Assembly (NCBI GenBank): GCA_038063995.1
Contig: JBBTUA010000007.1
Span: 5,219 to 69,218 of the forward strand
Length of the DNA: 64,000 bases
Direction: 5' to 3'
Source of the DNA: Patescibacteria group bacterium
Lineage (GTDB): Bacteria; Patescibacteriota; Minisyncoccia; 2-02-FULL-40-12
Under the pieces are notes generated by a model. That model was given only the letters and a program-made list of their open reading frames with translations, was not told the DNA's origin and made no database searches. Made by a program: the position numbers and the translations under genes. How positions within the stretch are numbered: position 1 is the first letter of the stretch; every line of letters starts with the position of its first letter. Of this stretch, positions 23,301 through 61,394 are shown piece by piece.

Positions 23301-23895
23301 TGAAGGGACCGCTGGCGCGGCTATTTCTAACGGGGTTCATTTTCACAATTGGCCGAAAGAAAACAAAAAACTGACTGATAAAAAGCTCGAGGAAGAAATG
23401 GAGCTAGTCAGAAAGATTGCGAGTCTTGGATTGGCGGCCAGGAAAGAAGCAGGAGTCAAAGTGAGGCAGCCCCTGGCTAAATTAGAATTTAGAACACAGA
23501 ATATAGAATTTAGTAAAGAATTGCTTGATTTAATCAAAGAAGAAGTGAATGTAAAAGAAGTAAAGTTTGAAAAAGGCGGAAAAGAAGAAGTTATTTTGGA
23601 TACTAAAATTACGCCGGCTTTGCGGCAGGAGGGCTGGGTGAGAGAATTTATAAGGATGATACAAGACGCAAGAAAAGATGCCGGCTATGAATACGATCAA
23701 AAAGTCAGAACTTTTTGGTTTTCTGAAGATAGAGAATTAAAGGAGGCGATTTTGCGGGAAAACGATTTCATAAAACAAAAAACAGTTTTAAAAGAGTTGA
23801 ATGAATCAAGGCATAACTCCAAATTTGCTTATGATGTTGAAAAAGAAGAAGAGATCGAATCAGGTAGAAAAATTTGGCTCGGATTAATCAAATGA
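20314..23895 (+). CDS. ileS: isoleucine--tRNA ligase carrying an embedded histidine-phosphatase (PGAM-superfamily) domain
   Basis: HIGH-type region (PPTANGMPHLGH), KMSKS, zinc knuckles (WCPRCGT; CPKCGG); about 190 aa inserted between ..SLEELEKYR and DLHRPYIDE containing RHGES .. SHGD (about 21780-22360). Confidence 0.9.
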   Translation: MSESNLAKIEEKIQKFWEANNIPEKIFGHRKGGKKFVFYEGPPTANGMPHLGHFETRAFKDLFIRFKTMAGFFVSRKAGWDTHGLPVEIEVEKELGLKSKKEIEEYGISKFNKKAKESVWRYKAEWEKFSKRMGFWLDFENPYITYDNDYIETLWHIIQKFDKKKFLYKGHKVLPWCPRCGTALSSHEVALGYENITEDSVYVKFRLKPDPKIGGFETDDKTYILAWTTTPWTLPGNVALAVGEKIDYAVVRKDNENFILAKDLAGKVLNKPYQIEKEITGKDLVGLEYEPLFKIKELQSEKSYKIYPADFVSTEEGTGVVHTAVMYGEDDYQLGEKIGLPKYHTVDKEGKFTNDVPELAEKFVKDADKDIIYYLKDKNLLLKVESYSHDYPFCWRCKTPLLYYATDSWFVKTTAVKKNLIANNKKINWVPSYIKEGRFGQWLNEVKDWAFSRDRYWGTPLPVWECKECRNYSVIGSLEELEKYRYRKPNKYFILRHGESQKNNFGGKEINSTKLETDKYDLTERGTDQAGKVVGKLKKEKIDLIFASPFLRTKRTAQIIGEELGIEMKIDYRLKEMDHGSVCEGRDYYACIPREEYPNTDFNTKFGMDGESRNEVRKRVLSFIRETGDQYEGKNILIVSHGDPLWLMEGMSKNFSEQELFLAKKNQILDIKDGAMILLKPGEMRILEFDNFPRDEFGNLDLHRPYIDEVLLKCPKCGGEMKRIPEVTDVWFDSGAMPFAQLHYPFENKKEFKENFPADFITEGVDQTRGWFYTLLAVSTLLDFGPPYKNVISLGFALDKNGRKMSKSIGNVITPNYVIDKFGSDVGRWWFYKVNQAGESKSFKEEELKQTENGFVRVLMNSLRFWELYKNDEQSGVNFHKLDKKNNLSVLDSWLLSKFNNLIKSVTDSLDNYDSTSSSREIEKFVIEDLSNWWIRRSREKFQSEGNSAQKDLLRFILLEAAKLIAPFVPFLAEYLYQEISIHPVRSRARAEGASPEGTAGAAISNGVHFHNWPKENKKLTDKKLEEEMELVRKIASLGLAARKEAGVKVRQPLAKLEFRTQNIEFSKELLDLIKEEVNVKEVKFEKGGKEEVILDTKITPALRQEGWVREFIRMIQDARKDAGYEYDQKVRTFWFSEDRELKEAILRENDFIKQKTVLKELNESRHNSKFAYDVEKEEEIESGRKIWLGLIK

Positions 23896-23909
23896 TATAT
23901 TTAACCTAA

Positions 23910-25607
23910 ATGGAAAGAAGGCTAATCATTAGTTTGTTTATTTTATTGATTCTGGGAACAGTGATTTTTTTGCTTTATCAGGCCAGATTCAAGGAAGGCC
24001 AGGTTTTTTTGAAAATAGAAGTACAGGAAGAAGCGGCAAGCGGCGAAGAAATAGAATACAAAGTTATCGTTGAAAACAGAAATAATTTTAATTTAACCGA
24101 CTCGAAATTATCATTCTTTTATCCTGAAGATTCCACTCCTTTAAGGGACGGCGAGCCCTTAGATTCTTTACTGGCCAATCTTGATTTGGGGACTTTTGAA
24201 CAAAGAAGCGAAAAAGAGTTTTTATTTAAAGCGATAATCACGGGAGAGAAAGGCGAGAATAAAAAAGCAAAAGCTGTCTTAACCTACTCCCCTTCAAACT
24301 TTCGTTCAGTTTTTCAAAAAACTGAAGAAGCGATAACAACTATTTCCAGAGTTTCTGTTTCTGTCAGTCTAAGCGCGCCGCCCAATATTTTATCCGGCCA
24401 AACGGTCACCGTGTTTGTCGATTTAAGGAATGAGACAGAAAAAGATTTACAGGATCTGCAGCTTGCACTTTCGTATCCTGAAGGCTTCATTTTTAAAAAA
24501 GCGATGCCTTCACCGAATGAAAGAAATGGTATCTTTAACATTGCTTCAATTAAGGCTGGCGAGGGCGTCAGAGTAAGTGTTGAAGGCGAAATTTCAGGAT
24601 TTGAAAAAGAAGGCAAAACATTTTCTGCCGTATTAAGAAAGAAAACAGGCGATCAATTCTTTGATCTGCAAAAATCAGAGGTGCTGCTCACTATTTCTTC
24701 TCCGCTTATTAGAAGCGAAGTTTTAATAAATGATTCAAAAAGTTTTGCAGCTAAGGCGGGAGATCGGTTAAAATATACAATAAAATTTTCCAACGATTCC
24801 AACTATAATTTTTCAGCCCTTGAATTAAGAGCGGCTTTGGACGGCCAAATGTTTGACTTCGCCACATTAAAAACCAATGACGGGTTTTTTGACCAGAATT
24901 CCCGGACTATTTTGTGGAATGCCGCCGCTTCAGATGATTTAGGAAATTTGCCGCCTCGAGGCAGTGGAGAAGTTTCTTTTGAGGTAAATGTAAAGCAGGA
25001 TTTCCCAAAAACTTTCGGCAAAAGCTATTCGTTAAAAGTCACCTCTTTAATTCAGATTTCTTCTGTCCCGCCGGATTTTGATTTAGATAAGGTTACTTCG
25101 TCTGCCGAGATGATGGTAAAAGTTGGATCAAAGGTCAGTTTTACAGCAAAGGCTTTTTACAATGATCAGGCGGTTCAAAATTCCGGGCCGGTTCCTCCCC
25201 GGGTTGGCCAAAAAACGACATATACGATACATTGGAAGATAGTTAATGAAGGGAATGATTTGACGAATGCAAGAGTAGAAAGTTTTTTGCCGCCGGGAGT
25301 CAGCTGGGAAAATGAATTCAAGCTTACGCCGTCTCAGTCTCAAATAAGATATGATCCGAGCTTAGGCAGAGTAAGCTGGTTGATTACCACGGTTCCGGCC
25401 GGGACAGGCGCAGTTTCCAATGTTTTTGAAGCTATTTTCCAAATAGGAATTACGCCAAGCATAAATCAAGTCGGCCAGGCTCCGGAAATAACTAAAGAAT
25501 CCAGTTTCGAGGCAACAGATAATTTTACCAAAGAAAAAATTAATTTAAGCCAGCCCGCGATCAATACGCAGACAGTAAGCGATTCGCCGGGAACAGTGGC
25601 AAACTAG
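23910..25607 (+). CDS. hypothetical membrane-anchored large extracytoplasmic protein
   Basis: 565 aa; N-terminal TM then beta-rich repetitive domains; no catalytic motif recognised. Confidence 0.55.
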   Translation: MERRLIISLFILLILGTVIFLLYQARFKEGQVFLKIEVQEEAASGEEIEYKVIVENRNNFNLTDSKLSFFYPEDSTPLRDGEPLDSLLANLDLGTFEQRSEKEFLFKAIITGEKGENKKAKAVLTYSPSNFRSVFQKTEEAITTISRVSVSVSLSAPPNILSGQTVTVFVDLRNETEKDLQDLQLALSYPEGFIFKKAMPSPNERNGIFNIASIKAGEGVRVSVEGEISGFEKEGKTFSAVLRKKTGDQFFDLQKSEVLLTISSPLIRSEVLINDSKSFAAKAGDRLKYTIKFSNDSNYNFSALELRAALDGQMFDFATLKTNDGFFDQNSRTILWNAAASDDLGNLPPRGSGEVSFEVNVKQDFPKTFGKSYSLKVTSLIQISSVPPDFDLDKVTSSAEMMVKVGSKVSFTAKAFYNDQAVQNSGPVPPRVGQKTTYTIHWKIVNEGNDLTNARVESFLPPGVSWENEFKLTPSQSQIRYDPSLGRVSWLITTVPAGTGAVSNVFEAIFQIGITPSINQVGQAPEITKESSFEATDNFTKEKINLSQPAINTQTVSDSPGTVAN

Positions 25608-25633
25608 AATACAGAATTTAGAATTTAGAGTAG
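25605..25633. repeat. AGAATATAGAA-family repeat
   Basis: TAGAATACAGAATTTAGAATTTAGAG between hypothetical gene and glyQS. Confidence 0.6.
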
Positions 25634-25635
25634 TT

Positions 25636-26919: not shown

Positions 26920-28193
26920 ACCAAGATTTTCTTCTTCATCAATACGAGAACGGTTTGCGATTAGTAGTTGTGCCGATGAAAAGCACCAAAACGGTAACGG
27001 TTTTGGTTTTGGTCGGCACCGGCTCACGCTACGAAACCAAGGAAATAAACGGCATCTCCCATTTTTTGGAGCATATGATGTTTAAAGGCACGCAAAAGAG
27101 GCCGCAGTCCCTGGACATCAGCCAGGAGCTTGATGCAATCGGCGCTGAATACAATGCCTTTACCTCAAAAGAATACACGGGTTATTATGCTAAGGCTTCA
27201 AGCGATAATTTAAATCTAGTCACCGACGTCATTTCTGATATTTTTTTGAACTCAAAGCTTGACGGGGCCGAAATCGAAAAGGAGCGCGGCGTGATAATTG
27301 AAGAAATAAATATGTATTTAGATGATCCGCCCCGCCATGTCGGCGATTTGTTTGAAAAGCTTCTCTACGGGGACCAGCCAGTCGGATGGAACGTGGCCGG
27401 AGAAAAAGAAATCATAAAGAAATTGGCCCGCGATAATTTTGTCGATTATTTTAATTCGCATTACGTGGCTAAAGACACTATTATTGCTGTGGCCGGGAAT
27501 GTTGATAAGGAGCAAGTCAGAAACGAGCTAGTTCCGAAATTTTTCAAGGATTCAAGAGTGGGCCAAAAGCTGGATCGGCTGGCAGTTTTGGAATCGCAAG
27601 ATAAGCCCGAAGTTTTACTTGAGCATAAGAAGACTGACCAGACCCATTTTATATTAGGCGTTCGGGCTTTTGATATGTTTTCGCCTAAAAGCGAAGCGGC
27701 GCAAGTTTTATCAGTGATTCTTGGCGGCGGGATGAGCTCACGTTTATTTATCGAAATCAGGGAAAAGCACGGCCTCTCTTATTATGTAAGGTCTGGTTTT
27801 GACGCCTATACTGACCATGGCTATTTTGCCAGTTCATCGGGGGTAGATAATAACAGGGTGGAAAAAGCGGTATCCGTAATTTTGAATGAATACAGGAAAC
27901 TTAAAGATGAATCAGTATCTGAAAAAGAATTGAAAAAAGCCAAGGAATTCATAAGAGGCCGGTTGGCCATTGCCCTTGAACAATCTGACGATTTGGCCGG
28001 TTTTTACGCTAATCAGTGGCTTTTAAAAAACCAGACTTTGACACCTGAAGAGAAATTAGATAAAATAATGAAAGTCAGGGCTGAAGATATCCAAGAAGTT
28101 GCAAGCGAAATCTTCCGTCCGGAAAAACTTAACCTTGCCTTGATCGGGCCGTTTGAAGATAAAGATAAATTCGAGAAACTTTTAGAAGTTTAA
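26916..28193 (+). CDS. M16-family zinc peptidase (insulinase-like)
   Basis: inverted zinc motif HFLEHMMFKGT. Confidence 0.8.
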   Translation: MNQDFLLHQYENGLRLVVVPMKSTKTVTVLVLVGTGSRYETKEINGISHFLEHMMFKGTQKRPQSLDISQELDAIGAEYNAFTSKEYTGYYAKASSDNLNLVTDVISDIFLNSKLDGAEIEKERGVIIEEINMYLDDPPRHVGDLFEKLLYGDQPVGWNVAGEKEIIKKLARDNFVDYFNSHYVAKDTIIAVAGNVDKEQVRNELVPKFFKDSRVGQKLDRLAVLESQDKPEVLLEHKKTDQTHFILGVRAFDMFSPKSEAAQVLSVILGGGMSSRLFIEIREKHGLSYYVRSGFDAYTDHGYFASSSGVDNNRVEKAVSVILNEYRKLKDESVSEKELKKAKEFIRGRLAIALEQSDDLAGFYANQWLLKNQTLTPEEKLDKIMKVRAEDIQEVASEIFRPEKLNLALIGPFEDKDKFEKLLEV

Positions 28194-28203
28194 ATATTTA
28201 AAT

Positions 28204-29256
28204 ATGCCTAGCGACGAGCGCCAAATGTTTGATATTTCAACCGCCACTATTTTTAGATTCGTTTTAATCGTCTTGTTTTTTATTTTGCTTTATCAAGTGA
28301 GGCAGGTCATTTTTATTCTGCTTTTTGCCATTGTTGTCGCCTCGGCAGTCAATCCTTTTGCAAAGTGGCTTGACCGCAAAAGAATTCCCCGGATTCTCGG
28401 AATTTTAGTTTTATACCTTACGATATTTCTTCTGGCTGTTTTCATACTGACTCTGGCCATTCCATTTTTTTCGCAGGAGGTCGGAGAACTTACCGAAGAT
28501 CTTCCTAAATTTATCGCTCAAATAACCGCTTCGTTGGAAGCGATTAAAAGCGAGACCGGAAGTTTTGATATAATCAGCCAGCTTCAGGGAATTTTGGATA
28601 GTTTGTCCCAGTTTTTGCAGGAGTCAAGCCAATCCGCAGTCGGGCTGATCATAAATATTTTCGGAGGAATAATTTCTTTCGCCGGAGTCATAGTGATATC
28701 TTTTTATCTTTCGGTGATGAGAGGAGGGATTGATCATTTTCTTAAATCAGTTGTTCCGGACAAGTACGAAAAATACACTTTGGATTTGTGGCATCGTTCT
28801 GAAAGAAATCTTGGCCGTTGGTTCCAGGCCCAATTGCTTTTGTCTTTGATCGTCGGCTTGATGACTTTTGTCGCTCTGTCGATATTAGGCGTCAAGTTTG
28901 CTCTTGTTTTAGCTGGTTTGATTATGGTTTTGGAACTTGTGCCAAATGTCGGTCCGGTTTTGGCGGCTATTCCGGCTGTTGGTTTGGCTTTTTTTCAGTC
29001 TCCTTCTTTGGGTTTTTGGACGCTTGGAGTTTATATCCTTATTCAACAGGTTGAGAATCATGTTTTGACCCCTTTGATTATGGGAAAAAGTCTTGGAATA
29101 AATCCTGTAGCTGTCATAATCGCTTTGCTTGTCGGTTTCAATCTCGCCGGAATCATAGGAATGATTTTGGCCGTGCCTGTGGCCACGGTAGTTGTTGAGT
29201 GGTTTAACGATATTGCCGAGAAGAAAGAAAAAGCCAGAGCGGTCGGCGCCACTTAG
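28204..29256 (+). CDS. AI-2E family transporter (PerM/UPF0118)
   Basis: 8 TM; family-typical soluble insert between TM helices. Confidence 0.7.
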   Translation: MPSDERQMFDISTATIFRFVLIVLFFILLYQVRQVIFILLFAIVVASAVNPFAKWLDRKRIPRILGILVLYLTIFLLAVFILTLAIPFFSQEVGELTEDLPKFIAQITASLEAIKSETGSFDIISQLQGILDSLSQFLQESSQSAVGLIINIFGGIISFAGVIVISFYLSVMRGGIDHFLKSVVPDKYEKYTLDLWHRSERNLGRWFQAQLLLSLIVGLMTFVALSILGVKFALVLAGLIMVLELVPNVGPVLAAIPAVGLAFFQSPSLGFWTLGVYILIQQVENHVLTPLIMGKSLGINPVAVIIALLVGFNLAGIIGMILAVPVATVVVEWFNDIAEKKEKARAVGAT

Positions 29257-31463: not shown

Positions 31464-33772
31464 TTAAATACAATCCGCAAAAAATCGAAAAAAAGTGGCA
31501 GAAGGAGTGGGAAAAGAAGAAGCTTTATCAAGCAAAAGATAAAGTTAAAGGCAAAAAGAACTTTTATCATTTAACAATGTTTCCTTATCCTTCCGGTGAT
31601 CTTCATATGGGCCATTGGTACAATTATGCGCCTTCAGATGTATATGCTCGCTTCAAACGGATGCAAGGTCTGAATGTGATGTCGCCTATCGGCTTTGACG
31701 CATTTGGTCTACCCGCCGAAAACGCAGCCATAAACAGGAATCTTGATCCGAAAATTTGGACTTACAGCAATATAAAGTCAATGAAGAAACAGCTTGATTC
31801 AATCGGCGTTTCTTTTGATTGGTCTCGAGAGGTGATTACCGCCGAGCCCGATTATTACAAATGGACCCAATGGATTTTTTTGAAACTATACGAAGTCGGT
31901 TTGGCGAAAAAAGAAAAAGTTTTAGCTAATTGGTGCCCGCACTGCAAGACTATTTTGGCTAACGAGCAGGTTCAGGACGGCCGCTGCGAAAGATGCGATA
32001 CTGTTGTGGAACAAAAACTGCTTGAGCAGTGGTTTTTTAAAATTACTGATTATGCTCAAAAACTTTTGGACGGCCTTGAAAAAATCGATTGGCCGGAAAC
32101 TACTAAAATTTTGCAAAGAAATTGGATTGGCCGGTCTGAAGGGGCGCAGATAGAATTTAGAATTGAGAATTCAGAATATAGAATTAAGGTTTTTACTACA
32201 AGGCCTGACACGATATTCGGGGCAACTTTTATGGTTTTGGCGCCTGAACACGAGTTGGTTAAAAAAATTACCAAAGATGCCCAATTGGGTCAGGTGAATA
32301 ATTACTTAGAGAAAACGAAAAAGAAAACAGAATTGGAGCGGATAGCTGAAGTCAAAGAAAAGACCGGAGTTTTTACCGGCGCCTACGCTTTTAATCCCGC
32401 AACCAAAGAAAAGATACCGATTTGGATTTCTGATTTTGTTTTGCCTCATTACGGAACAGGCGCGATTATGGCGGTTCCAGCTTACGATGAGAGAGATTTG
32501 GAATTTGCCGAAAAATTCGGCCTGCCAGTAAGAAAAATTGATCTGGACGATAAAATTCTAAGCGAACTTGAAAAAAGGGGATTAGCTGAAAGAAAGACAA
32601 GTTATCGGCTTCATGATTGGATAATCAGTCGCCAGCGCTACTGGGGAGCGCCGATTCCGATGATTTATTGCCAGAAGTGCGGAATTATACCTGTCCGGGA
32701 AAAGGATTTGCCGGTTTTGTTGCCCAAAATTAAGGATTATAAGCCGTCCGGCACCGGCGAGTCGCCATTAGCCGAAGTAAAGGACTGGGTCAATGTAAAA
32801 TGCTGGAAATGCTCCGGGCCGGCCCGCCGCGAAACCGATACGATGGATACATTTGTTGATTCGGCCTGGTATTTTTTGCGCTACGCCGACCCCAAAAATA
32901 AAAAAGAGTTTGTTTCAAAAGAAAAATTAAAGGACTGGCTTCCGGTAGATATTTATATTGGCGGTCAGGAACATGCGACCAAACATTTGCTTTACGCCAG
33001 ATTCATAACCAAAGTTTTGTACAACTATGGTTATTTAAATTTTAACGAGCCATTCGTAAAAATGAGGCACCAAGGATTAATTTTGGGTCCTGATGGCAAT
33101 AAAATGTCCAAATCAAGAGGCAATGTGATTGACCCAGACGAAATAGTTAAGAAATTCGGCTCTGATTCGGTGCGTATGTATCTTTGTTTTATGGGCCCTT
33201 ATGAAAACGGCGGGCTTTGGGATCCGAAAGCTATTGTCGGGGTATTCAGATTTCTAAATAGAGTTTGGAATCTGATAAATTCCAAATTTCAAAATTTCAA
33301 AACCCAAAATAAAGAATTGGATAAAATTTTCAATAAAGCGATGAAAAAAATCGGGGAAGATATTGAAAATTTAAGATTCAATACGGCGGTCAGCGAATTG
33401 ATGAAGCTATTAAATGAAATAGAAAACAAAGAGCTGGCCAAAGATCAAATTAAAATATTTTTGAAATTGCTGGCGCCGTTCGCACCTCATCTGACCGAAG
33501 AGCTTTGGCGGGAAGTTCTGAAAAACAAAAAATCAATCCATCTGGAAAAATGGCCTGAATACGATTCGAAATTGATTGAAGAAGAAACGATTTATTTGAT
33601 CGTTCAGATCAACGGCCGGACTCGCGATATTATAAAAGTTCCCCGAGATTTGAATGAATCTCGCGTCCGCGAGCTTGCTCTTTCTTCGGAAAAAATAAAA
33701 AAATATACAGCCGGAAAAGAAATCATCAAATTCATCTATATTTCCAATAAATTGGCTAATATAGTCCTTTAG
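31460..33772 (+). CDS. leuS: leucine--tRNA ligase
   Basis: PYPSGDLHMGHWYNY; KMSKSRGNVIDP; start set at Met-19 (MIKYNPQKIEKKWQ), ATGA-overlapped with metG. Confidence 0.9.
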   Translation: MIKYNPQKIEKKWQKEWEKKKLYQAKDKVKGKKNFYHLTMFPYPSGDLHMGHWYNYAPSDVYARFKRMQGLNVMSPIGFDAFGLPAENAAINRNLDPKIWTYSNIKSMKKQLDSIGVSFDWSREVITAEPDYYKWTQWIFLKLYEVGLAKKEKVLANWCPHCKTILANEQVQDGRCERCDTVVEQKLLEQWFFKITDYAQKLLDGLEKIDWPETTKILQRNWIGRSEGAQIEFRIENSEYRIKVFTTRPDTIFGATFMVLAPEHELVKKITKDAQLGQVNNYLEKTKKKTELERIAEVKEKTGVFTGAYAFNPATKEKIPIWISDFVLPHYGTGAIMAVPAYDERDLEFAEKFGLPVRKIDLDDKILSELEKRGLAERKTSYRLHDWIISRQRYWGAPIPMIYCQKCGIIPVREKDLPVLLPKIKDYKPSGTGESPLAEVKDWVNVKCWKCSGPARRETDTMDTFVDSAWYFLRYADPKNKKEFVSKEKLKDWLPVDIYIGGQEHATKHLLYARFITKVLYNYGYLNFNEPFVKMRHQGLILGPDGNKMSKSRGNVIDPDEIVKKFGSDSVRMYLCFMGPYENGGLWDPKAIVGVFRFLNRVWNLINSKFQNFKTQNKELDKIFNKAMKKIGEDIENLRFNTAVSELMKLLNEIENKELAKDQIKIFLKLLAPFAPHLTEELWREVLKNKKSIHLEKWPEYDSKLIEEETIYLIVQINGRTRDIIKVPRDLNESRVRELALSSEKIKKYTAGKEIIKFIYISNKLANIVL

Positions 33773-46325: not shown

Positions 46326-46362
46326 TTAGAATATAGAATTTAGAATAGAGAATATAGAATAT
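46326..46362. repeat. AGAATATAGAA-family repeat
   Basis: TTAGAATATAGAATTTAGAATAGAGAATATAGAATAT between rpmB and M50 protease. Confidence 0.65.
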
Positions 46363-47028: not shown

Positions 47029-47040
47029 GCTTCTTAACCT

Positions 47041-47068: not shown

Positions 47069-47232
47069 CAAATATCAAGCTGAAAAAGCTTAAAACAGCA
47101 CTTTTATATAAGAATTACTTACGAGACTCGCCATAGCCTTGTGGCATTAAGGAAAGCTTTAATACTGAAAGGCTATGGCGGCATTCCGTTGCCTAGTTCA
47201 TCCAAAAGGAGGATGACGCCTTGACTTAGATC

Positions 47233-47391: not shown

Positions 47392-47403
47392 CTCGCGGAA
47401 ACA

Positions 47404-47841: not shown

Positions 47842-48114
47842 TCCTTTGACCTTTGTTCCTTTGGTCTCGTTGGCCTTTGGAATTTGGTCCTTGGAACTCT
47901 TGGCCCGCATCTGCTTACAAGCAGATGCAGGCCTTTTTCTTTAAATATGTTAAAATTTTAAACGGCAATAGGTGAATATGCGGAAGATCACGGTTTTTCG
48001 CTACCGAACCCAGTATCCATAAAACCGAGAGTATCTCCGACTAAGGTTTATGAGATAGAGTAGTTTATGAGAACTTAAAAAATGAAGATACTTGGTGTGG
48101 TAAGCTAGGGTATT

Positions 48115-48465
48115 TTGATACTGAATTCGATACAATCCGGAGAGTATTCAACGGATAGTGGCATGGACGGCTTGCCATACGATTCGCCACGTTCAACCAG
48201 TGGTCTGATAGATAATATTATTTGGCTTCACAATGATTTAAAGAACTTTAAATATAATCACGGCGGCTATAAGGCATTCAAAATCAACGACCCGAAACCG
48301 AGAAATATCCATAAGGCAACAGTCAGAGACAGATTATTGTACCATGCTATTTACCGGGTTCTTTATCCTTTTTTTGATAAGACTTTCATTTTTGATTCTT
48401 TTTCTTGCCGAAACAAAAAAGGAACTCACAGAGCTTTAAATAGATTCAGATTTTTTGCATATTAA
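48115..48465 (+). pseudogene. reverse transcriptase N-terminal fragment (motifs 0-2), DGR-type
   Basis: GGYKAFKINDPKPRNIHKATVRDRLLYHAIYRVL .. FDSFSCRNKKGTHRALNR matches GxYxxxxFxIxDPKxRxI, DR..hhA and SYGFRxGRsxHxAl; ORF stops before motif 3. Confidence 0.7.
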
Positions 48466-48553
48466 GTTAAAATTAAAAATAAAATCCTTCAAAGAATAAT
48501 TATTGCCTAATAAAAATCTTTGTGTTAGTATTTTTCTGCTAAATCGAAAACAT

Positions 48554-48964
48554 ATGCCGACTTTCAGGCAGTTATTGAAAAACCCGAGAAAGATTATAAA
48601 GGCGAAGACAAAATCGCCGGCTTTAGCTTTCGGTTTCAACACAAACAAAAATAAGCCGGTTGATTATTTTTCTCCTTTCAAAAGAGGAGTTTGCGTAAAG
48701 GTAACAACCGTGACTCCCAAAAAGCCGAACTCGGCTTTGCGGAAAATCGCCAGAGTCCGTTTGACCAACGGCCAGGAAGTGACCGCATATATTCCCGGAA
48801 TCGGCCATAATCTTCAGGAGCACTCGGTGGTGATGATAAGAGGCGGTCGGGTCAAGGATCTGCCTGGAGTCAGATACCATATTGTAAGGGGGATGCTGGA
48901 CTCGGCTGGAGTGGAAGGCCGGAAACAGCAAAGAAGCAAATACGGAGCAAAGCGCCCGAAATAA
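48554..48964 (+). CDS. rpsL: 30S ribosomal protein S12
   Basis: MPTFRQLLK .. [10 protein letters not shown]; start set at internal Met. Confidence 0.9.
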
Positions 48965-48988
48965 ATTATCAATTCTATATTCTAATCT

Positions 48989-49456
48989 ATGAGACGAGGA
49001 AACGTTCCGAAAAGAAAAATTGAACCAGACATCAAATACGAAAGCGGTTTAGCCGCCAAATTTGTTAATTATGTAATGAAAGACGGGAATAAAACCATTG
49101 CCCGAAAAATTGTTTACGGGGCTTTGGAAAATTCTGAAAAAAAACTCGGCAAAGGAGCTCTCGAAATTCTCGAACAGGCTATAAGAAATGCCGGGCCGGA
49201 AATGGAACTGCGGTCCCGCCGTATCGGAGGCGCCAATTACCAGATTCCTTATCCGGTCAAGCCGGAAAGAAGAATTACTTTGGCCTTGCGCTGGATAATT
49301 GAAGCGGCCAGAGCGAAAAGCGGGCAGTCAATGATAGAAAAATTAACCCAGGAGTTAGCCGATGCTTATTCTAACACCGGAGCGGCGGTTAAGAAAAAGA
49401 TGGATACTCACAGAATGGCTGAAGCAAATAAGGCATTCGCCCATTTTGCCTGGTAG
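48989..49456 (+). CDS. rpsG: 30S ribosomal protein S7
   Basis: MRRGNVPKRKIEPD... Confidence 0.9.
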   Translation: MRRGNVPKRKIEPDIKYESGLAAKFVNYVMKDGNKTIARKIVYGALENSEKKLGKGALEILEQAIRNAGPEMELRSRRIGGANYQIPYPVKPERRITLALRWIIEAARAKSGQSMIEKLTQELADAYSNTGAAVKKKMDTHRMAEANKAFAHFAW

Positions 49457-49460
49457 CAGA

Positions 49461-49497
49461 AAGAATATAGAACAAAGAATATAGAACATAGAACGAG
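49461..49497. repeat. AGAATATAGAA-family repeat, left arm flanking the four-helix-bundle gene
   Basis: AAGAATATAGAACAAAGAATATAGAACATAGAAC. Confidence 0.65.
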
Positions 49498-49498
49498 A

Positions 49499-49846
49499 AT
49501 GACCAACACTTTTAAAGATTTGATAGTTTGGCAAAAGTCTAAACAACTAGCCGTAGAAATCTATAAACTAACAGAAAAGTTCCCCAAGTCAGAATTGTAT
49601 GGTTTAGTAAGTCAGATGCGCCGAGCGGCAATTTCAATTTCATCAAATATAGCCGAAGGCTATAAAAGGTTTCATAGTAAAGAGAAAAAGCAATTGTTTT
49701 CAGTTGCTTCTGGCTCCGGGACTGAATTAGAAAGTCAAATAGAGATAACTAAGGAATTATTCCCAGAAATAGATTTTTCAAAATCTATTTTACTTTTAGA
49801 AGAAATAATGAAAATATTAAACAACTTTGTTAAAAAGTTGTCTTAG
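49499..49846 (+). CDS. four-helix-bundle protein of the 23S rRNA intervening-sequence / Avd family
   Basis: DLIVWQKSKQLAVEIYKLTEKFPKSELYGLVSQMRRAAISISSNIAEG family signature (the family that includes DGR Avd); flanked by inverted AGAATATAGAA repeats; inserted between rpsG and fusA. Confidence 0.75.
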   Translation: MTNTFKDLIVWQKSKQLAVEIYKLTEKFPKSELYGLVSQMRRAAISISSNIAEGYKRFHSKEKKQLFSVASGSGTELESQIEITKELFPEIDFSKSILLLEEIMKILNNFVKKLS

Positions 49847-49850
49847 TTTT

Positions 49851-49886
49851 GAATTCTATATTCTAAGTTCTATATTCTAAATTCTA
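49851..49886. repeat. AGAATATAGAA-family repeat, right arm in inverted orientation
   Basis: GAATTCTATATTCTAAGTTCTATATTCTAAATTCTAT; reverse complement matches the left arm. Confidence 0.65.
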
Positions 49887-52003
49887 TGCCGCGTGATTAT
49901 CCCATTGAGAAAACAAGAAACATTGGCATCATTGCTCATATAGACGCCGGCAAAACAACCGTAAGCGAGCGCATTTTATTTTACACCGGCGTTTCCCACA
50001 AAATCGGAGAAGTTCACGAAGGGGAAGCGATAATGGACTGGATGGAGCAGGAACGGGAGAGAGGCATCACTATCACCGCCGCCGCGACAACGGTTTTTTG
50101 GATTCCCACATATTTAAGAGAAATCCAAAACAGAAAAGAATTTGAATACAAGATAAACATAATTGATACTCCGGGGCACGTTGATTTTACCGTTGAAGTC
50201 GAACGTTCCCTTAGAGTTTTAGACGGAGCAGTAGTTGTTTTTGACGGAGTCGCCGGAGTCGAACCCCAGTCAGAAACCGTTTGGCGTCAGGCTGATAAAT
50301 ATAAAGTTCCCAGAATTTGTTTCGTAAATAAGCTAGATAGGCTTGGCGCTTCGTTTGAACGTTCTTTTCAGTCAATTTTGGCAAGGCTTACCCCAAATGC
50401 GGTAAGGGTGCAGATTCCTGATGGTGAGGAAGACAAATTCACCGGCGTAGCCGATCTTTTGAAAATGAAATTTTACCGTTTTGAGGGCAAGTTCGGCGAG
50501 TCAACCGTTGAAAGTGAAATTCCAGATAATCTGAAAGAAGCAGCCCAGAAATACCATCACGAACTGATTGAAAAAATAGCCGAAAACGACGACGAGCTCA
50601 CGGAACTGTTTTTGGAAGGCAAAGAAATTCCTTTGGAAAGATTAATTGCCTCTTTAAGAAAGTCAGTTTTAAATTATAAATTGGTTCCGGTTTACTGCGG
50701 TTCGGCTTTAAAAAACAAAGGGGTCCAACTGGTTTTGGACGCCGTGATTGATTATCTGCCATCTCCGATCGAGGTTCCGCCGGTCAAAGGGGTTAACCCG
50801 AAAACCGGAGAGGCCGAAGAAAGGCATCCAAAAGACGAGGAGCCCTTTACTGCCTTGGCTTTTAAAGTAGCTACTGATCCTTATGTCGGTCAGCTTACCT
50901 TTTTCCGCGTTTATTCAGGAATTTTAAAAGCCGGTTCTTATGTTTTGAATGTAACCAAAAACGAAAAAGAAAGAATCGGCCGGATTTTGCGGATGCATGC
51001 CAATGAAAGACAGGAATTGTCCGAAGTTTATGCCGGCAACATCGCGGCCACGGTCGGTTTGAAATCCACCCGGACCGGCGATACGCTTGCCGATCCCGGT
51101 TGGCCGGTTATTTTGGAGGAAATAGTTTTTCCGGAGCCGGTCATATCTTTAAGAATCGAACCCAAGACAAAAGCTGACCAGGAAAAAATGTCTCTGGCTT
51201 TAAAACGTTTGTCTGATGAAGATCCGACTTTCAGAATCAGGAGCGACAGCGAAACAGGCGATACAGTCATTTCAGGAATGGGCGAATTGCATCTTGAAAT
51301 CATTGTTGACCGGATGAAAAGGGAATTTGGAGTCGTGGCTAATATCGGCCGGCCTCAAGTTGCTTACAAAGAAACAATCCAAGGTTCAACAGAAGTTGAG
51401 GGAAAATATATACGCCAGTCGGGTGGAAGAGGTCAATACGGCCATGTTTGGCTGCGCCTTGAACCACTTGAGCAAGGTAAGGGTTTTGAGTTTGTGGATG
51501 CTATAAAAGGAGGGACGATTCCGGATGAATTTATTCCAGCCATTGAAAAAGGAATTATGGAGGCTAAGGAGAAAGGAGTTTTAGCCGGTTATCCGATGAC
51601 TGATTTTAAAGCGACAGTGTATGACGGTTCTTTTCATGAGGTTGATTCTTCGGAGATTGCTTTTAAAATCGCTGCTTCTTCGGCTTTTCAAGATGGGGCC
51701 AAGCGCTCGAAACCAGTTATCCTCGAACCGATTATGAAATTGGAAGTCATAGTTCCGGAAAAGTTTATGGGCGAAACAACCGGAGATCTTTCAAGCCGCC
51801 GGGGCCAGATTCTGAATATTTCAGATCGCGAGAACTTGAATCTTAAAGTAATTGATGCTAAAGTTCCTCTTGGCGAAATGTTCGGTTATGCCACAGTTTT
51901 GCGTTCGCTTACCGAAGGCAGAGGCACATTTACTATGGAATTTTCAAACTATGAAGTGGTGCCGCAAAACGTGGCTGATCAAATTGCCGCCGGCAAAAAA
52001 TGA
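49886..52003 (+). CDS. fusA: elongation factor G
   Basis: [10 protein letters not shown]1 motif; EF-G domains II-V. Confidence 0.9.
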
Positions 52004-52248
52004 ATGACGAAATAAAAAATTTGGTTTCCAAACTTGGAGCCTTAGCCATATTAGAAGAAGGCGAGCCGAAGTTTGTGATTCTGTCTTACGAAAAGGCCAA
52101 AAGCCTAATTATCCACAAAAACATTGACAATTCCGTATATTCTGATAAAGATAGTAGTGAAGAGATAGATAGATTGAATAGGGAGATTCTTATCTTGAAA
52201 GAAGAAGTGGCCCAAAAGGAAAGGGAATTATCAGTAGGTAATTTATAG
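52000..52248 (+). CDS. hypothetical small protein between fusA and tuf (weak Phd/YefM-like N-terminus)
   Basis: 82 aa; [18 protein letters not shown] then coiled-coil; ATGA-overlapped with fusA. Confidence 0.35.
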
Positions 52249-52328
52249 GCAAAATATGATAACTTCGGAAAAGCTATTTTTTTTCGCTCATCAGAAGTTA
52301 TAAAATTTTCCTAAAATTTTTAAAGAAT

Positions 52329-53534
52329 ATGGCCGAAAAATTTGAAAGAGGCAAGATTCACGTCAACATCGGAACAATAGGTCACGTTGACCATGGCAAG
52401 ACCACATTAACTGCGGCAATGCTTCATGTTGCCGGAGAATTGCTTAATGATGAAGGCTATAAAGCCAGGGTTGAGAAAGTTGATCAAATCGACAAGGCTC
52501 CCGAGGAAAAAGCTAGAGGAATTACCATTGCTTTGCACCATTCGGAATTAGAAACTCCTAAAAGGCATTATGCTCATGTCGATGCTCCCGGACACGCCGA
52601 CTACATTAAGAATATGATCACCGGCGCGGCCCAGATGGACGGAGCCGTTTTGGTTGTTTCGGCGCCCGACGGTGCCATGCCTCAAACTAGAGAGCATATA
52701 TTGCTGGCCCGTCAGGTTGGGGTGCCTTCAATAATCGTCTTTTTGAATAAAATAGACCAGGTTCAGGATCCTGAATTGATTGATCTGGTTGAAACCGAAA
52801 TCAGAGAGCTTTTGAACAAGTATCAATATCCCGGCGACACTACGCCGGTGATCCGCGGTTCAGGATTAAAGGCTTTGGAAGCCAAGTCAAAAGATGACCC
52901 GGCGGTAGCTCCGATTCGGGAACTTTTAAAAACCATAGACGAATACATTCCTGATCCGGTCAGAGATACCGAAAAGCCTTCTCTTATGCCCATTGAAGAC
53001 GTCTTTTCAATCGAAGGGCGAGGCACCGTGGTAACGGGAAAAGTAGAAAGAGGCAGAATAAAACTTAACGAAGAAATTGAAATTGTCGGAATAAGGCCTA
53101 CCCAAAAAACCATAGTCACTGGGGTAGAAATGTTTAACAAACAGTTGGATGAAACCATCGCCGGAGATAATGTCGGTTTGCTTTTGAGGGGAGTAAAGAA
53201 AGAAGATGTTTCGCGCGGGCAGGTAATTGCCAAGCCCGGCTCAATTACTCCTCATACCGAATTCGAGGCTGAAATTTATATTTTGACGAAAGAAGAGGGC
53301 GGACGCCATACCCCGTTCTTTGCCGGTTATAAGCCGCAATTTTATGTCAGAACAACTGATGTCACCGGCGAAGTAATTCTTCCTGAAGGAACCGAAATGG
53401 TAATGCCCGGCGACACCGTGAATTTGAAAATTAAATTAATTGCTCCAATCGCCTTGGAAGAAAAGATGAGATTTGCCATCAGAGAAGGAGGCAAGACAGT
53501 CGGTGCAGGAGTGGTGACAAAAATAAGTAAATGA
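52329..53534 (+). CDS. tuf: elongation factor Tu
   Basis: [13 protein letters not shown]; full-length EF-Tu. Confidence 0.95.
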
Positions 53535-53578
53535 TAGGACTTACTCTCTAGCGGGTAAGTCCTTTTGGTTCCTTAACT

Positions 53579-53923
53579 ATGACTTCGAGTCCGGCAAAGA
53601 AGAAAGAAGAAGGAAAAAATGAACAGCGGATAAGGATTCGTTTGAAAGCTTTTGATAGCCGCATTATTGACCGGTCAGTCAAGCAGATCATGGAGACTTT
53701 GGAAAAAATGGATGTTCAGGTCATCGGGCCGGTGCCGTTGCCCACCGAAATATCAAAATTCACGGTTAATCGATCAACCTTTGTCCATAAAGACAGCCGT
53801 GAGCAGTTTGAAATGAGGATTCACAAAAGGCTGATTGAGATTCAAAACCCCACGCCGAAAATAATCGATGCTTTGATAAATTTAAGTCTGCCAGCGGGAG
53901 TAGATATTGAAATCAAGATGTAA
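53579..53923 (+). CDS. rpsJ: 30S ribosomal protein S10
   Basis: [11 protein letters not shown] core, with a short Lys-rich N-terminal extension. Confidence 0.9.
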
Positions 53924-53951
53924 ATTGATTTCAATATCTGTTCCTGAAATA

Positions 53952-54091
53952 TATATGGATAGGAATCCATATATTTACGGCATTCGATTGTAATAAGTAA
54001 TTACTTATTACAATCTCTTTTGTAAATATGAACAGATTTTATAAAATTTAATTTTTTTTAGCGATTTTAGCGAGCCCCGCTAAGCGGGGCT
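53952..54091 (+). promoter_or_regulatory. structured rpsJ-rplC intergenic region with three hairpins/palindromes
   Basis: TATATGGAT agga ATCCATATA (53952-53973); perfect 28-bp palindrome ATTGTAATAAGTAA/TTACTTATTACAAT (53987-54014); GCCCCGC taa GCGGGGC then TTTAATTT (54069-54098). Confidence 0.5.
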
Positions 54092-54538: not shown

Positions 54539-55184
54539 TCAAAATGCAGAAATAATCGGAAAAGTGGAATTGAATGACTCGATTTTCGGCGTTGAAATGA
54601 ATCCTGATTTGATGCATCAGGTTATTGTCGCTCAGGCAGCCAATTCAAGGTCTATTTTAGCCCATGCAAAAGGAAGAAGCGAAGTAAGGGGCGGCGGCAA
54701 AAAACCTTGGCGCCAGAAAGGAACCGGCCGGGCAAGACACGGTTCGATCCGCTCTCCGATTTGGAAAGGAGGAGGCGTGACTCATGGGCCTTTGAAAGAA
54801 AAAGTTTATTCCCAAAAAATAAATAAAAAAGCAAAACAGAAAGCTTTGTTTATGGCTTTGAGCTCGAAAGTAAAAGACGGTCAAGTCGCTGTTATTGATT
54901 CGGTTTTGCTGGACGAAGCCAAGACTAAAAAAATGAAAGAGATTTTCGATAAAGTTTCCAATATTCTGGAGGGCTACAAGAAAAATAAAAAAAATCAGGA
55001 TTCGATTTTACTGGTTCAACCCTCTTCGGACAAAAAAATTTTCCGGGCCGTCAGGAATCTGGTTTTTGCCAAAGCGGTCCGGGCTGATAATTTGAATATT
55101 TCGGAAATTTTGGAAAAAAAATATTTAGTTTTGCTTAAAGATGCAATTCCGGTAATTGAAAAAACATATCTTAAAAATATTTAA
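54519..55184 (+). CDS. rplD: 50S ribosomal protein L4
   Basis: GGGKKPWRQKGTGRARHGS. Confidence 0.9.
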   Translation: MQINLFNQNAEIIGKVELNDSIFGVEMNPDLMHQVIVAQAANSRSILAHAKGRSEVRGGGKKPWRQKGTGRARHGSIRSPIWKGGGVTHGPLKEKVYSQKINKKAKQKALFMALSSKVKDGQVAVIDSVLLDEAKTKKMKEIFDKVSNILEGYKKNKKNQDSILLVQPSSDKKIFRAVRNLVFAKAVRADNLNISEILEKKYLVLLKDAIPVIEKTYLKNI

Positions 55185-55203
55185 ATTTTTAAATATATTC
55201 CAT

Positions 55204-56407: not shown

Positions 56408-56444
56408 AAATATTTAAATATTTAAATATTTAAACTTTTTATTT
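56408..56444 (+). promoter_or_regulatory. TTTAAATATTTAAAT intergenic motif upstream of rpsS
   Basis: aaaatatttaaatatttaaatatttaaac; same motif family at 55185-55203, 56787-56824, 58100-58151, 58790-58830, 59197-59212, 59519-59537, 60303-60342, 60745-60776. Confidence 0.6.
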
Positions 56445-56786: not shown

Positions 56787-56824
56787 TGTTTAAATATTTA
56801 AATGTTTAAATATATAAATTATAT

Positions 56825-58099: not shown

Positions 58100-58151
58100 A
58101 CAAAAATATATTTAAATGTTTAAATATTAAAAGTATTTAAATATATTCATT

Positions 58152-58789: not shown

Positions 58790-58830
58790 ATGAGAATATT
58801 TAAATATTTAGACATTTAAATGTATTCGGC

Positions 58831-59196: not shown

Positions 59197-59212
59197 GTTT
59201 AAATATTTAAAT

Positions 59213-59518
59213 ATGAAGATTAGAGCAGGCGACACAATAATAATGATTACTGGAAAAGACCGGGGCAAAACCGGCAAAATTTTACGTTCTTTTCCCCAAG
59301 AAAATAAAGTTGTTGTGGAAGGGTTGAATTTAGTTAAAAAACATCAAAGGCCGCGCCGCCAGGGGCAGAAAGGCGAAATTATATCATTGCCTAGTTCAGT
59401 TGGTATTTCAAAAGTTATGCTTGTCTGCCAGCATTGCAAAAAGCCTTCCCGTATGGGCTTAAAGCATCAAGATGGGAAAAAAATAAGAGTTTGCAAAAGA
59501 TGTAAAGGAGAAAACTGA
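59213..59518 (+). CDS. rplX: 50S ribosomal protein L24 with C-terminal zinc-ribbon-like CxxC..CxxC
   Basis: MKIRAGDTIIMITGKDRGKTGKI; start at internal Met after the TTTAAATAT motif. Confidence 0.85.
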   Translation: MKIRAGDTIIMITGKDRGKTGKILRSFPQENKVVVEGLNLVKKHQRPRRQGQKGEIISLPSSVGISKVMLVCQHCKKPSRMGLKHQDGKKIRVCKRCKGEN

Positions 59519-60302: not shown

Positions 60303-60342
60303 TAATGACGTTTAAATATTTAAATATTTAAATATATTCGAT

Positions 60343-60744
60343 ATGGATACAATTTCAGACTTTTTCATCAGAATAAAAAATGCTTACCTGGCTAAAAAAG
60401 ACCGGGTGGTTATTCCTTTTTCAAGAATGAAATATCAGTTAGCCGAGATTTTAGAAAAAAAAGGTTTTATTTCCGCTGTAAGGAAAAAGAAAAGAATAAA
60501 GAAAAACGGATATGGCGAGATTCTGCTTGATTTGAAGTTGAAATATGACCATAATGAATCGCCCCTTAATGATATAAAGCTTGTTTCCAGGCCCAGCCGA
60601 AGGATTTATTTGAAAAAAGATGAAATTAAACCAGTGAGAGACGGGTATGGAATATTAATAATTTCAACCTCTCGGGGTATTATGACCGGCGAAGAGGCTA
60701 AAGAACTGGGCCTTGGCGGCCAGGCCATCGCCGAGGTATGGTAA
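60343..60744 (+). CDS. rpsH: 30S ribosomal protein S8
   Basis: DTISDFFIRIKNA. Confidence 0.9.
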   Translation: MDTISDFFIRIKNAYLAKKDRVVIPFSRMKYQLAEILEKKGFISAVRKKKRIKKNGYGEILLDLKLKYDHNESPLNDIKLVSRPSRRIYLKKDEIKPVRDGYGILIISTSRGIMTGEEAKELGLGGQAIAEVW

Positions 60745-60776
60745 TTACAACATTTAAACATTTAAATATATTAAGT

Positions 60777-61340
60777 ATGTCACGGATCGGAAAACAGCCA
60801 ATTAAAATTCTGCCAGACACTCAAGTTAAAATTGAAGGCGGTTTTATCTATGTAAAAGGGCCTAAGGGTGAGATGGTCAAGCCGATAAATAAATCGGTTA
60901 ATGTCGAGATCGCGGAAGGAGAAATACGGGTTAGTCCGAAAAGCACTTCTAAAGAAGCAAGGGCTCTTTGGGGCACTTATCGCGCTTTGATAAATAATAT
61001 GATAAAGGGAGCAAAGGATGGTTTCGAAAAGGTTTTAGTTTATGAAGGAATCGGATTCAAATCAGAAGTAAAGCAGGATTCATCGGCTGAATCGGGAAAA
61101 GTTATTCAGCTTAACGTCGGTTTTACTCATCCGGTAATAGTTCCGGCGCCTAAAGGCATTGATTTTAAAACAGAGAAAAACCAGATAACGGTTTCTGGCG
61201 CGGATAAAGAACTGGTTGGCCAGACAGCCGCGAATATTAGAAAAGTTAAGCCGCCAGAGCCTTATAAGGGCAAGGGAATCAGGTATAAAGATGAAGTGAT
61301 ATTAAGAAAAGCCGGTAAAAAAGCAGTGACCACTGGATAG
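60777..61340 (+). CDS. rplF: 50S ribosomal protein L6
   Basis: MSRIGKQPIKI; start at internal Met. Confidence 0.9.
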   Translation: MSRIGKQPIKILPDTQVKIEGGFIYVKGPKGEMVKPINKSVNVEIAEGEIRVSPKSTSKEARALWGTYRALINNMIKGAKDGFEKVLVYEGIGFKSEVKQDSSAESGKVIQLNVGFTHPVIVPAPKGIDFKTEKNQITVSGADKELVGQTAANIRKVKPPEPYKGKGIRYKDEVILRKAGKKAVTTG

Positions 61341-61394
61341 AATATAGAACACAGAATATAGAATCTGATTCTATATTCTAAATTCTACATTCCA
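61339..61394. repeat. AGAATATAGAA-family palindromic repeat between rplF and rplR
   Basis: GAATATAGAACACAGAATATAGAAT ctga TTCTATATTCTAAATTCTA; a 20-mer is shared with the ileS coding copy at 23481-23515. Confidence 0.7.

Follow-up and report, generated by a model that had tools for sequence, protein, structure and literature searches.

Why is a small gene for a four-helix-bundle protein, bracketed by inverted repeats that recur elsewhere in the same DNA, found between rpsG and fusA? The question is raised by a window of 64,000 nucleotides (contig JBBTUA010000007.1, positions 5,219 to 69,218) from a Parcubacteria-type Patescibacteria metagenome-assembled genome of Hainich groundwater; coordinates below refer to this window, and all its arrays are described along the forward strand. 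A first-pass annotation had taken the repeats for a mobile or recombinogenic family that may have mobilised an Avd-like gene into the operon. On balance we favour another reading. The repeats are probably the arms of an element of the intervening sequence (IVS) type, which encodes a protein of the S23p family and is located here in a protein-coding operon, accompanied by hairpins without an open reading frame (ORF), by solo arms and by arrays within coding sequences. An IVS-type S23p element in protein-coding operons, with a family-wide grammar of co-varying arms, was not found described in the literature.

The cassette between rpsG and fusA

All repeat blocks cited in the first-pass annotation were located, with coordinates that agree within a few bases. 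The sequence AGAATATAGAA, allowing at most one mismatch, occurs 25 times in the window compared to 2.35 expected copies, a count to which none of 100 shuffles came. Tandem Repeats Finder and a phase scan identify the repeat unit as a tandem heptamer. The arrays follow the pattern (TAG/NAG + 4 nt)n on one strand and (4 nt + CTA)n on the other, and the heptamer in the window is NAGAAYN, mostly TAGAATA, TAGAACA or CAGAATA, with the complement on the opposite strand. There are nine such sites: two in-frame coding arrays, three solo arms, one inverted pair (two arrays) and one hairpin (two arms).

The inverted pair does bracket the four-helix-bundle gene like a cassette. Its 5' arm (49454..49498) consists of six heptamers, TAGCAGA AAGAATA TAGAACA AAGAATA TAGAACA TAGAACG, which are phased from the rpsG stop codon and end 3 nt ahead of the ATG of the gene (49499..49846, 115 aa). 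The 3' arm, (NNNNCTA)5 at 49847..49888, is the reverse complement of the 5' arm, and its last CTA shares its A with the fusA ATG at 49886. The cassette lies between co-directional genes and extends from the stop codon of the first onto the start codon of the second. The arms at 49462 and 49854 match over 25 nt with 92% complementarity at a distance of 367 nt, and the minimum free energy fold of 49440-49900 (-112.5 kcal/mol, z -5.45) pairs them around the ORF. The element lies outside rRNA, being flanked by rpsG (PF00177) and fusA and not situated within a 23S or 16S rRNA gene, and a Pfam search including the neighbouring genes detected no transposase in or beside it. Rfam assigned no known RNA family to the arrays and no rRNA to the window, while Pfam supports the proteins S12, S7, EF-G, L6, L18, S8, S5, IleRS, LeuRS and a class-II synthetase.

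The bracketed gene is a member of the S23p or 23S rRNA IVS protein family. Its product matches PF05635 with 112.4 bits (cut-off 33.8; E 1.5e-32) and TIGR02436 with 111.3 bits (cut-off 24), and its solved relative is XCC0516 (PDB 2GSC, 2.5e-17). The model for the Avd protein of diversity-generating retroelements, NF033474 (DivGenRetAVD), gives 21.4 bits against a cut-off of 80, and the bAvd Pfam model gives 27.5 bits, under its cut-off of 40. The region 44000-54000 contains no direct repeat resembling a template repeat/variable repeat (TR/VR) pair, the neighbours of the cassette are rpsG and fusA, and no reverse transcriptase gene is adjacent. Because PF05635 and TIGR02436 match, whereas the Avd model fails and TR/VR repeats are absent, the term Avd-like is valid at the superfamily level only, and we dropped a retroelement identity for the gene. 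Between the window and its relative L209 (see below), dN/dS of the ORF is 0.06, compared to 0.11 for rpsG and 0.04 for fusA. Judged from these ratios, the cassette protein is, where its ORF is intact, functional and under strong purifying selection.

The junction itself was compared in relatives, chosen through EF-G similarity, whose contigs cover rpsG/fusA. Two of them have an empty site: in L004 (EF-G 88% identical) rpsG and fusA are separated by 6 nt, and in L006 (86% identical) the two genes overlap. Such arrays are absent in the 13-22 kb examined of L004 and L006. L209 has an intact cassette at the identical site, with a four-helix-bundle protein 81% identical to that of the window. A third state is found in L005, which originates from the same aquifer (EF-G 86%): both arms have been kept around a decayed ORF, in which an internal deletion of about 220 nt has left roughly 75 nt at the 5' end and roughly 50 nt at the 3' end. 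With an empty site in L004 and L006, a filled one in the window and L209, and a decayed copy in L005, the cassette, gene and repeats together, is an insertion, and the suspicion of the first-pass annotation on this point is borne out. No target-site duplication is seen between the filled and the empty site.

Both arms of L209 carry TAGTAA-type units where the window has TAGAAT/TAGAAC. On sequence comparison this swap of units is a compensatory change at one site. The number of units varies as well, the 5' arm of L005 being two units longer than that of the window and the 3' arms of L005 and L209 being shorter. L005 also has the orthologue of a hairpin that in the window separates rplF from rplR, with a different number of units (-30.4 kcal/mol, z -6.0). 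Hairpins without an ORF plausibly arise by ORF deletions of the kind found in L005, with arms that outlive the ORF. A separate observation concerns an 82%-identical relative (L007, 1-126), in which inverted (TTACGAA/TAAAGAA)n arrays 5' of fusA flank a short GC-containing hairpin. The position is equivalent to that of the window cassette, but the element found there lacks an ORF and is built from another unit.

Phased arms as the boundary of a gene family

Arrays of this kind are not limited to the window. They are present in the relatives and, when genomes are selected by the repeat itself (four AGAAY units at period 7, in a scan of 185,579 species genomes that gave at least 120 loci), among the matches listed they are spread over many phyla, frequently in inverted pairs and even at a genomic G+C content of 60-70%. 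In this repeat-selected sample the arrays directly flank four-helix-bundle genes in Flavobacterium, Saprospiraceae and Vicinamibacterales, and one contig has two copies of the gene, each with a different complementary heptamer pair. Among the 120 AGAAY-array loci listed, single-sequence phmmer detected one extra four-helix-bundle gene and an iterated hidden Markov model detected five loci.

As this first sample was picked by the repeat pattern, we substituted a sample selected by the protein. The cassette protein has more than 2,500 homologues, many of them about 70% identical across lineages. From a metagenome scan 80 loci were taken by protein similarity only, which left 72 after removal of redundancy, and 119 other ORFs on the same contigs served as controls. 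Three or more TAG N4 units are found upstream in 58/72 loci (81%), compared to 6/119 controls (5%), and three or more N4 CTA units downstream in 46/72 (64%), compared to 4/119 (3%). Both arms are present in 41 of the 72 loci (57%) and in a single control (<1%). The opposite polarity is rare, with 8 cases upstream and 1 downstream.

The arms share a grammar and differ in wording. A motif-free period-7 detector, used as a pattern-agnostic check, gave thirty unit types (e.g., TAGAAAA, TAGTAAG, TAGCGTT, TAGGGTA, TAGCTTT, TAGGCAA, TAGTGCG), of which 26 contain AG and 20 contain TAG; the period is 7 and the modal unit number five. The 3' unit, when reverse-complemented, agrees with the 5' unit at no more than one mismatch in 28 of 35 loci. 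Partner arms of the same locus differ by 1.20 mismatches on average, compared to 2.21 when partners are permuted, and none of 200 permutations was as good; likewise, the mean duplex energy is -37.3 kcal/mol for a locus's own arms, -27.4 for arms from other loci and -22.5 for shuffled arms. Placement follows the window too. In 50 of 68 loci an upstream ORF on the same strand terminates at the 5' arm or close to it, and in 15 of these the first TAG serves as its stop codon. A downstream ORF exists in 18 loci, and in 17 of them its ATG is -1 to +16 nt away from the last CTA. The anatomy of the element can thus be written as a 5' arm of about five NAG heptamers (mostly TAG in the window) in a fixed 7-nt phase, an ORF that starts a few nucleotides later, and a 3' arm that is the reverse complement of the first.

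As far as these sequences go, members of this gene family are usually bounded by inverted arms in heptamer phase in all the phyla sampled. The proposal that a repeat captured or mobilised the gene does not survive this result: because the arms flank most relatives picked by protein alone, they are not a separate gene-capturing repeat family.

Two further observations concern the gene family. Many cassettes (L129-L208) are preceded by a gene whose product ends in ...D(F/L)S(I/V)(L/M)A(Y/F)YWTG*, a conserved tail that suggests either a preference for one family of host genes or repeated duplication of one locus in genomes of the Candidate Phyla Radiation (CPR). In L090 (4003-4533) a longer four-helix-bundle-like gene (177 aa) is located exactly between two tRNA genes, another habitat linked to non-coding RNA.

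Arrays without the gene and their known counterparts

The other arrays of the window lack the gene. An ORF-less hairpin separates rplF from rplR (L6/L18) at 61338..61395. It is the copy that had been recognised as self-complementary, with a 5' arm (61338-61364) beginning at the rplF stop codon TAG, a CTG loop and a 3' arm (61368-61395) directly followed by the rplR ATG at 61396. The hairpins fold with z-scores of -3.9 to -7.5. A solo forward arm at 25605..25632 (TAGAATA CAGAATT TAGAATT TAGAGTA) begins at the TAG stop codon of a DUF11 gene and is followed, after 3 nt, by the ATG of a class-II aminoacyl-tRNA synthetase gene; it is unstructured alone and is found at the same position in L210 and L212 with different unit sequences. 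Another solo forward arm, of five units (46327..46362), lies 55 nt 5' of an M50 peptidase gene and has a counterpart in L005 (8051-8078). The third solo arm, absent from the first-pass annotation, is a short reverse (CTA-type) arm, ATTATCAATTCTATATTCTAATCT, directly 5' of the rpsG ATG (48965..48988), which is 91% complementary to 46325-46346 and 77% to 49462-49483. In total, forward arms open on the upstream stop codon at 25605 (DUF11 gene), 49454 (rpsG) and 61338 (rplF), and arrays stop 0-3 nt from the ATGs at 25636, 49499, 49886 and 61396.

Two arrays are read in frame. The one in ileS (23483..23517; TAGAATT TAGAACA CAGAATA TAGAATT TAGTAAA) encodes LEFRTQNIEFS, including the LEFRTQNIEF that had been read there before. 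The one in leuS (32151..32185; TAGAATT TAGAATT GAGAATT CAGAATA TAGAATT), which had gone unnoticed, encodes IEFRIENSEYRI. The in-frame unit is CAG in ileS and GAG in leuS, not TAG. LeuRS GAQIEFRIENSEYRIKVFT aligns without gaps to GAEILFPVEGKEVRIPVFT of Thermus thermophilus, and IleRS is colinear with its solved homologue except for gaps of one or two residues. Because both are colinear with solved homologues, an in-frame insertion of the Rickettsia type was dropped as an explanation of these copies. The ileS array occupies a linker whose length and sequence are hypervariable among close relatives: L210 has (AAAGTTTC)n in frame with period 8, and (CAATTTC)n and (CAATTTT)n are found, together with palindromic inserts, in L211 and L212.

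The ileS array and the rplF/rplR hairpin share an exact 20-mer, TAGAACACAGAATATAGAAT, at 23490 and 61345, as had been reported, and it recurs in the cassette arm of L005 (L005:9807). This shared sequence suggests, at the level of sequence comparison, exchange within one array family. It fits the term recombinogenic of the first-pass annotation but is not direct evidence of transposition; an independent mobile family is the part of that claim that we do not retain.

Other features of these synthetases stand apart from the arrays. In one relative the ileS linker contains an in-frame insertion of a palindromic repeat with the core AATCGAGGATCCTCGAT, which is also present in the rpsG-fusA spacer of another (palindromes at L211 6465-6623, L212 7085-7228 and L008 9690-10000), and the ileS site of L212 has a different, GC-rich palindrome. 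IleRS (20314-23895) contains an inserted His_Phos_1 domain (aa 493-647), as do 120 of the 120 Parcubacteria IleRS homologues listed, and LeuRS of L004 carries a NUDIX domain.

According to the IVS-type reading, the hairpin between rplF and rplR, the solo arms at 25605, 46327 and 48965 and the arrays in ileS and leuS are likely derivatives of the same kind of element. Within the transcript of the operon, the arms would form a duplex of about 25-35 bp with the ORF inside. RNase III may cut this duplex in analogy to rRNA IVSs, so that the flanking cistrons would come apart and the downstream start codon would be preceded by an A/U-rich leader devoid of a Shine-Dalgarno (SD) sequence. Three TAG-phased units would provide a stop codon in every frame, so that an insertion at the end of a gene would terminate upstream translation cleanly, which may explain why such insertions are tolerated in essential operons. 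Recombination between arrays with the same unit within one genome would be one possible route of spread.

To our knowledge, neither a function nor a mobility mechanism has been assigned to IVS elements and their S23p ORFs since they became known in about 1990. Hosts of S23p-encoding rRNA IVSs include Coxiella burnetii, Leptospira, Brucella, Xanthomonas and Azospirillum, and very many genomes contain PF05635 genes under the annotation "four helix bundle protein" or "S23 ribosomal protein". Similar to the rRNA IVSs, the window element has a PF05635/TIGR02436 ORF inside terminal inverted repeats that form a long stem. The 23S IVS of C. burnetii has tandem GACAGAT heptamers of strain-variable copy number 5' of the S23p ORF and a 28-bp terminal stem, and RNase III cuts it at the first repeat; Coxiella AuQ01 has a large deletion of the IVS ORF, and the Coxiella ORF was judged expendable (PMC4990558). 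The window element likewise has heptamers in its 5' arm just before the ORF, in a copy number that varies between lineages; the ORF of L005 has decayed by internal deletion with the stem kept, as in AuQ01, and heptamer-phased arms are shared with the Azospirillum 23S IVS. There are differences as well. The rRNA IVSs are located in helix 9, 25 or 45 of 23S rRNA, whereas the window element lies between protein genes and abuts stop and start codons, with TAG-phased units that place stops in all frames. In contrast to the expendable Coxiella ORF, that of the window is under strong purifying selection (dN/dS 0.06), and RNase III cleavage, which is known for rRNA IVSs, would extend to the window element by analogy only. 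Full-text literature searches gave no statement of a general rule of heptamer arms, and a single paper, on Coxiella, in which heptamers are tied to the S23p ORF (PMC4990558).

Cultured organisms, for which plasmids were searched by tblastn and ten loci examined, show further unit types. Plasmid loci carry (CAGGAGT)n in Nostoc punctiforme and Aulosira, CAGAGGG-type inverted arms in Stanieria, (GGAAAAG)n in Geminocystis and (AAGGTTT)n in Riemerella; on a plasmid of Nostoc PCC 7120 there is a CTCTGCC-type 3' arm only, no matching 5' arm being seen beside the ISL3 transposase gene. A plasmid of Picosynechococcus (L219) has GGAGATA-type inverted arms between cas10 and cmr3, and in Azospirillum lipoferum (CAGAGGA/CGGAGGA)n lies within 23S rRNA. 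For PF05635 genes in cas loci, an association with CRISPR was earlier considered possible (PMC3936711). By their arrays, the genes of L219 and of a Pseudanabaena plasmid (L214) look like the same intercistronic insertions, which calls for caution with guilt by association for PF05635 genes.

Inverted arms in a seven-base phase, an invariant NAG, co-varying spacers and a stop-to-start placement make up this shared grammar, which makes the rRNA IVS look like just one of the habitats of a wider class of elements located between cistrons. The grammar also provides a usable annotation rule for ORF-containing elements, ORF-less hairpins and solo arms.

A candidate link exists to unexplained heptamer arrays of cyanobacteria, Beggiatoaceae, Bacteroidota and Xanthomonas. 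Direct repeats of the heptamer TAACTGA occur in marine Beggiatoaceae, cyanobacteria and Bacteroidetes, and a role with a post-transcriptional regulator was proposed for them (MacGregor, 2015, PMC4679880). The window arrays resemble them in being tandem heptamers of 2-6 units a few nucleotides from SD-less start codons with stops in three frames forward, in their location in ribosomal-protein operons and before fusA and an aminoacyl-tRNA synthetase gene (pheS in that case), in occasional copies within ORFs and in a patchy phylogenetic distribution. They differ in the unit (TAGAATA/TAGAACA/CAGAATA) and in forming mainly complementary pairs, whereas the TAACTGA arrays are nearly all direct and solo, with one inverted case and no reported link to four-helix-bundle genes. 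In Xanthomonas and Nostoc, GGGAATC and GGGGAYT heptamer arrays were read as G-quadruplex formers (Rehm, 2015, PMC4692102). These arrays are intergenic as well, include about 70 convergent pairs in Xanthomonas, and vary in length between related genomes while preserving their single or inverted type, but are without NAG phase and without a reported gene association. With the Rickettsia palindromic elements, the window arrays have in common the in-frame copies in permissive, variable segments of essential genes (ileS, leuS); unlike them, these copies are about 35 nt long, cause no net insertion relative to solved homologues and consist of tandem heptamers, not palindromes.

Several observations weigh against the IVS-type reading. 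Both window structures pair better as antisense than as sense strand (hairpin: -28.5 vs -18.1 kcal/mol; cassette arms: -40.2 vs -37.3 kcal/mol), and the mismatches on the sense strand are C-A. Across loci, sense pairing beats antisense pairing slightly (energy p 0.009, G-U count p 0.085), and co-orientation with the neighbouring genes is no higher than the genomic background. Many of the 72 loci are related CPR elements and not fully independent. The arrays of Pseudanabaena (L214), between cas6 and cas4, are direct on both sides, and those on a plasmid of Gemmatirosa are direct with period 8. RNase III processing is an analogy taken over from work on rRNA IVSs, and the complementarity of the arms could be maintained by template-switch repair, with no need for selection on a stem in the RNA. 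Arm pairing leaves the invariant NAG unexplained, and the solo arms and coding arrays, having no partner arm, need another explanation or are decay products.

Other readings of the arrays

The constancy of NAG is the starting point of a first alternative, to which we give some but limited credence: the (NAG N4)n arrays may be single-stranded RNA that is read by a ring oligomer, either an S23p pentamer or another RNA-binding protein. TRAP binds (G/U)AG repeats and HutP binds UAG-N4-UAG-N4-UAG, both as ring oligomers. The period of seven corresponds to the UAG of HutP plus its 4-nt spacer, and the arrays adjoin the start codon as they do for TRAP and HutP. NAG triplets at constant spacing, the criterion for operators of these proteins, are what the arrays show; S23p has an unrelated fold, however, and the arrays usually have a complementary partner here. 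Such binding, tentatively, could regulate how the cassette ORF and the genes next to it are translated, and it is compatible with arm pairing. It would account for a NAG fixed at a 7-nt phase while the other four bases are free (AG in 26/30 and TAG in 20/30 unit types), and for the fixed polarity, the NAG arm being 5' of the ORF in 58 loci and opposite in 8. Since a few nucleotides separate the end of the array from the start of the ORF, a bound protein would cover the initiation region. The modal unit number of five is in line with XCC0516, the Xanthomonas S23p homologue, which according to PMC4990558, citing Lin (2006), is a toroidal homopentamer. The solo arms, unstructured, directly before start codons and conserved in position across lineages, point in the same direction, and they resemble the TAACTGA arrays before fusA, ribosomal-protein and pheS genes (PMC4679880).

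RNA binding by S23p is purely hypothetical, though, and drawn from analogy. Moreover, L005 kept its arms after the ORF was lost, the ORF-less hairpins reduce to plain stems, the T of TAG in CPR genomes is explicable by stop codons in all frames, and a correlation between unit type and protein clade can reflect common descent. In its boldest form, which we put forward as speculation of low probability, the S23p proteins would be ring-shaped RNA- or DNA-binding proteins, each subunit of which contacts one NAG of an array of about five NAG-N4 units. Gene and arrays would then form a self-regulating intercistronic module that would have colonised rRNA genes as well as CRISPR-cas and ribosomal-protein operons across many phyla. 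If true, ring binding would account for many heptamer arrays of bacteria that lack an explanation (short tandemly repeated repetitive sequences, TAACTGA arrays, Xanthomonas inverted pairs), together with the 35-year-old puzzle of the IVS ORF.

A mobile element acting at the DNA level is a rather doubtful second alternative. Here, the arrays would be terminal inverted repeats or foldback ends, as in miniature inverted-repeat transposable elements or foldback transposons, the gene would be cargo or an accessory, and movement would depend on a recombinase or transposase encoded elsewhere or on homologous recombination between arrays. The presence/absence polymorphism at the orthologous rpsG/fusA site is in line with this possibility, as are proteins about 70% identical in distant lineages, including Ignavibacterium, and the many unrelated contexts (ribosomal-protein operons, cas operons, rRNA). 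A unit type common to all arrays of a genome and a 20-mer at three sites are expected from recombination or conversion between arrays. The window arms pair at least as well in antisense, hence pairing is not strand-specific, which also counts for a DNA-level process. On the other hand, a target-site duplication is absent when filled and empty sites are compared, no transposase is found in or beside the cassette, and 30 unit types are not what ends serving a sequence-specific transposase look like. Constraints at the level of expression are suggested instead by the polarity of the NAG arm, which is fixed, and by the exact abutment on stop and start codons.

Functionless simple-sequence repeats (SSRs), made by slippage and accumulating in A/T-rich spacers, are very improbable as an explanation and largely refuted by the control comparisons. 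Unit number does vary between lineages, heptamers form the commonest class of long SSRs in prokaryotes and are documented as over-represented (Mrazek, 2007, as cited in PMC4679880 and PMC4692102), the ileS linker has different short tandem repeats in each lineage, one of them with period 8, and a second family, (TTTAAATA)n, occupies other spacers. Slippage, however, is no source of a reverse-complementary partner of fixed polarity (both arms in 57% of loci vs <1% of controls), and leaves unexplained the covariation of the arms, the invariant NAG and the conservation of position across genomes at 70-88% protein identity. Weakest of all, arrays of promoter -10-like boxes that drive internal transcription starts were rejected: TAGAAT matches the -10 consensus (TATAAT) at 5/6 positions and a simple scan gave two weak 9/12 sites using it (46310-46339 on the forward and 49881-49853 on the reverse strand), but units elsewhere (e.g., TAGCGTT, TAGGGTA, CAGGAGT, AAGGTTT) are not -10-like, reverse arms precede fusA and rplR, no -35 partner better than 9/12 was found, and the sole strong promoter nearby (47040-47067) is unrelated to the arrays.

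The second family consists of tandem octamers, (TTTAAATA)n, with a self-complementary unit, located directly before many SD-less start codons of ribosomal-protein genes (28189-28205, 55175-55196, 56408-56434, 56789-56819, 58108-58144, 58795-58821, 59198-59214 and 60311-60335); these arrays form weak hairpins, with z of about -2.5 in two of three tested.

Upstream of the cassette, by about 1 kb and just 5' of rpsL, a 116-aa ORF (48115-48465) has a sub-threshold match to the N-terminus of group II intron reverse transcriptases and, judging from this match, is probably the remnant of such an enzyme. About 1 kb upstream of this rpsL-side ORF lies the strong promoter just mentioned, a perfect sigma-70 promoter (TTGACA-16-TATAAT with TG), which faces a G+C-richer stretch without a recognisable gene. 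Between fusA and tuf, an 82-aa ORF (52000-52248) has no Pfam or NCBIfam match and is conserved, genes of 73-126 aa being present there in every related contig examined. The window further contains a tmRNA gene (13124-13477; Rfam RF00023, 94 bits) and four tRNA genes, at 5294 and 10025 and, on the reverse strand, at 41791 and 46043.

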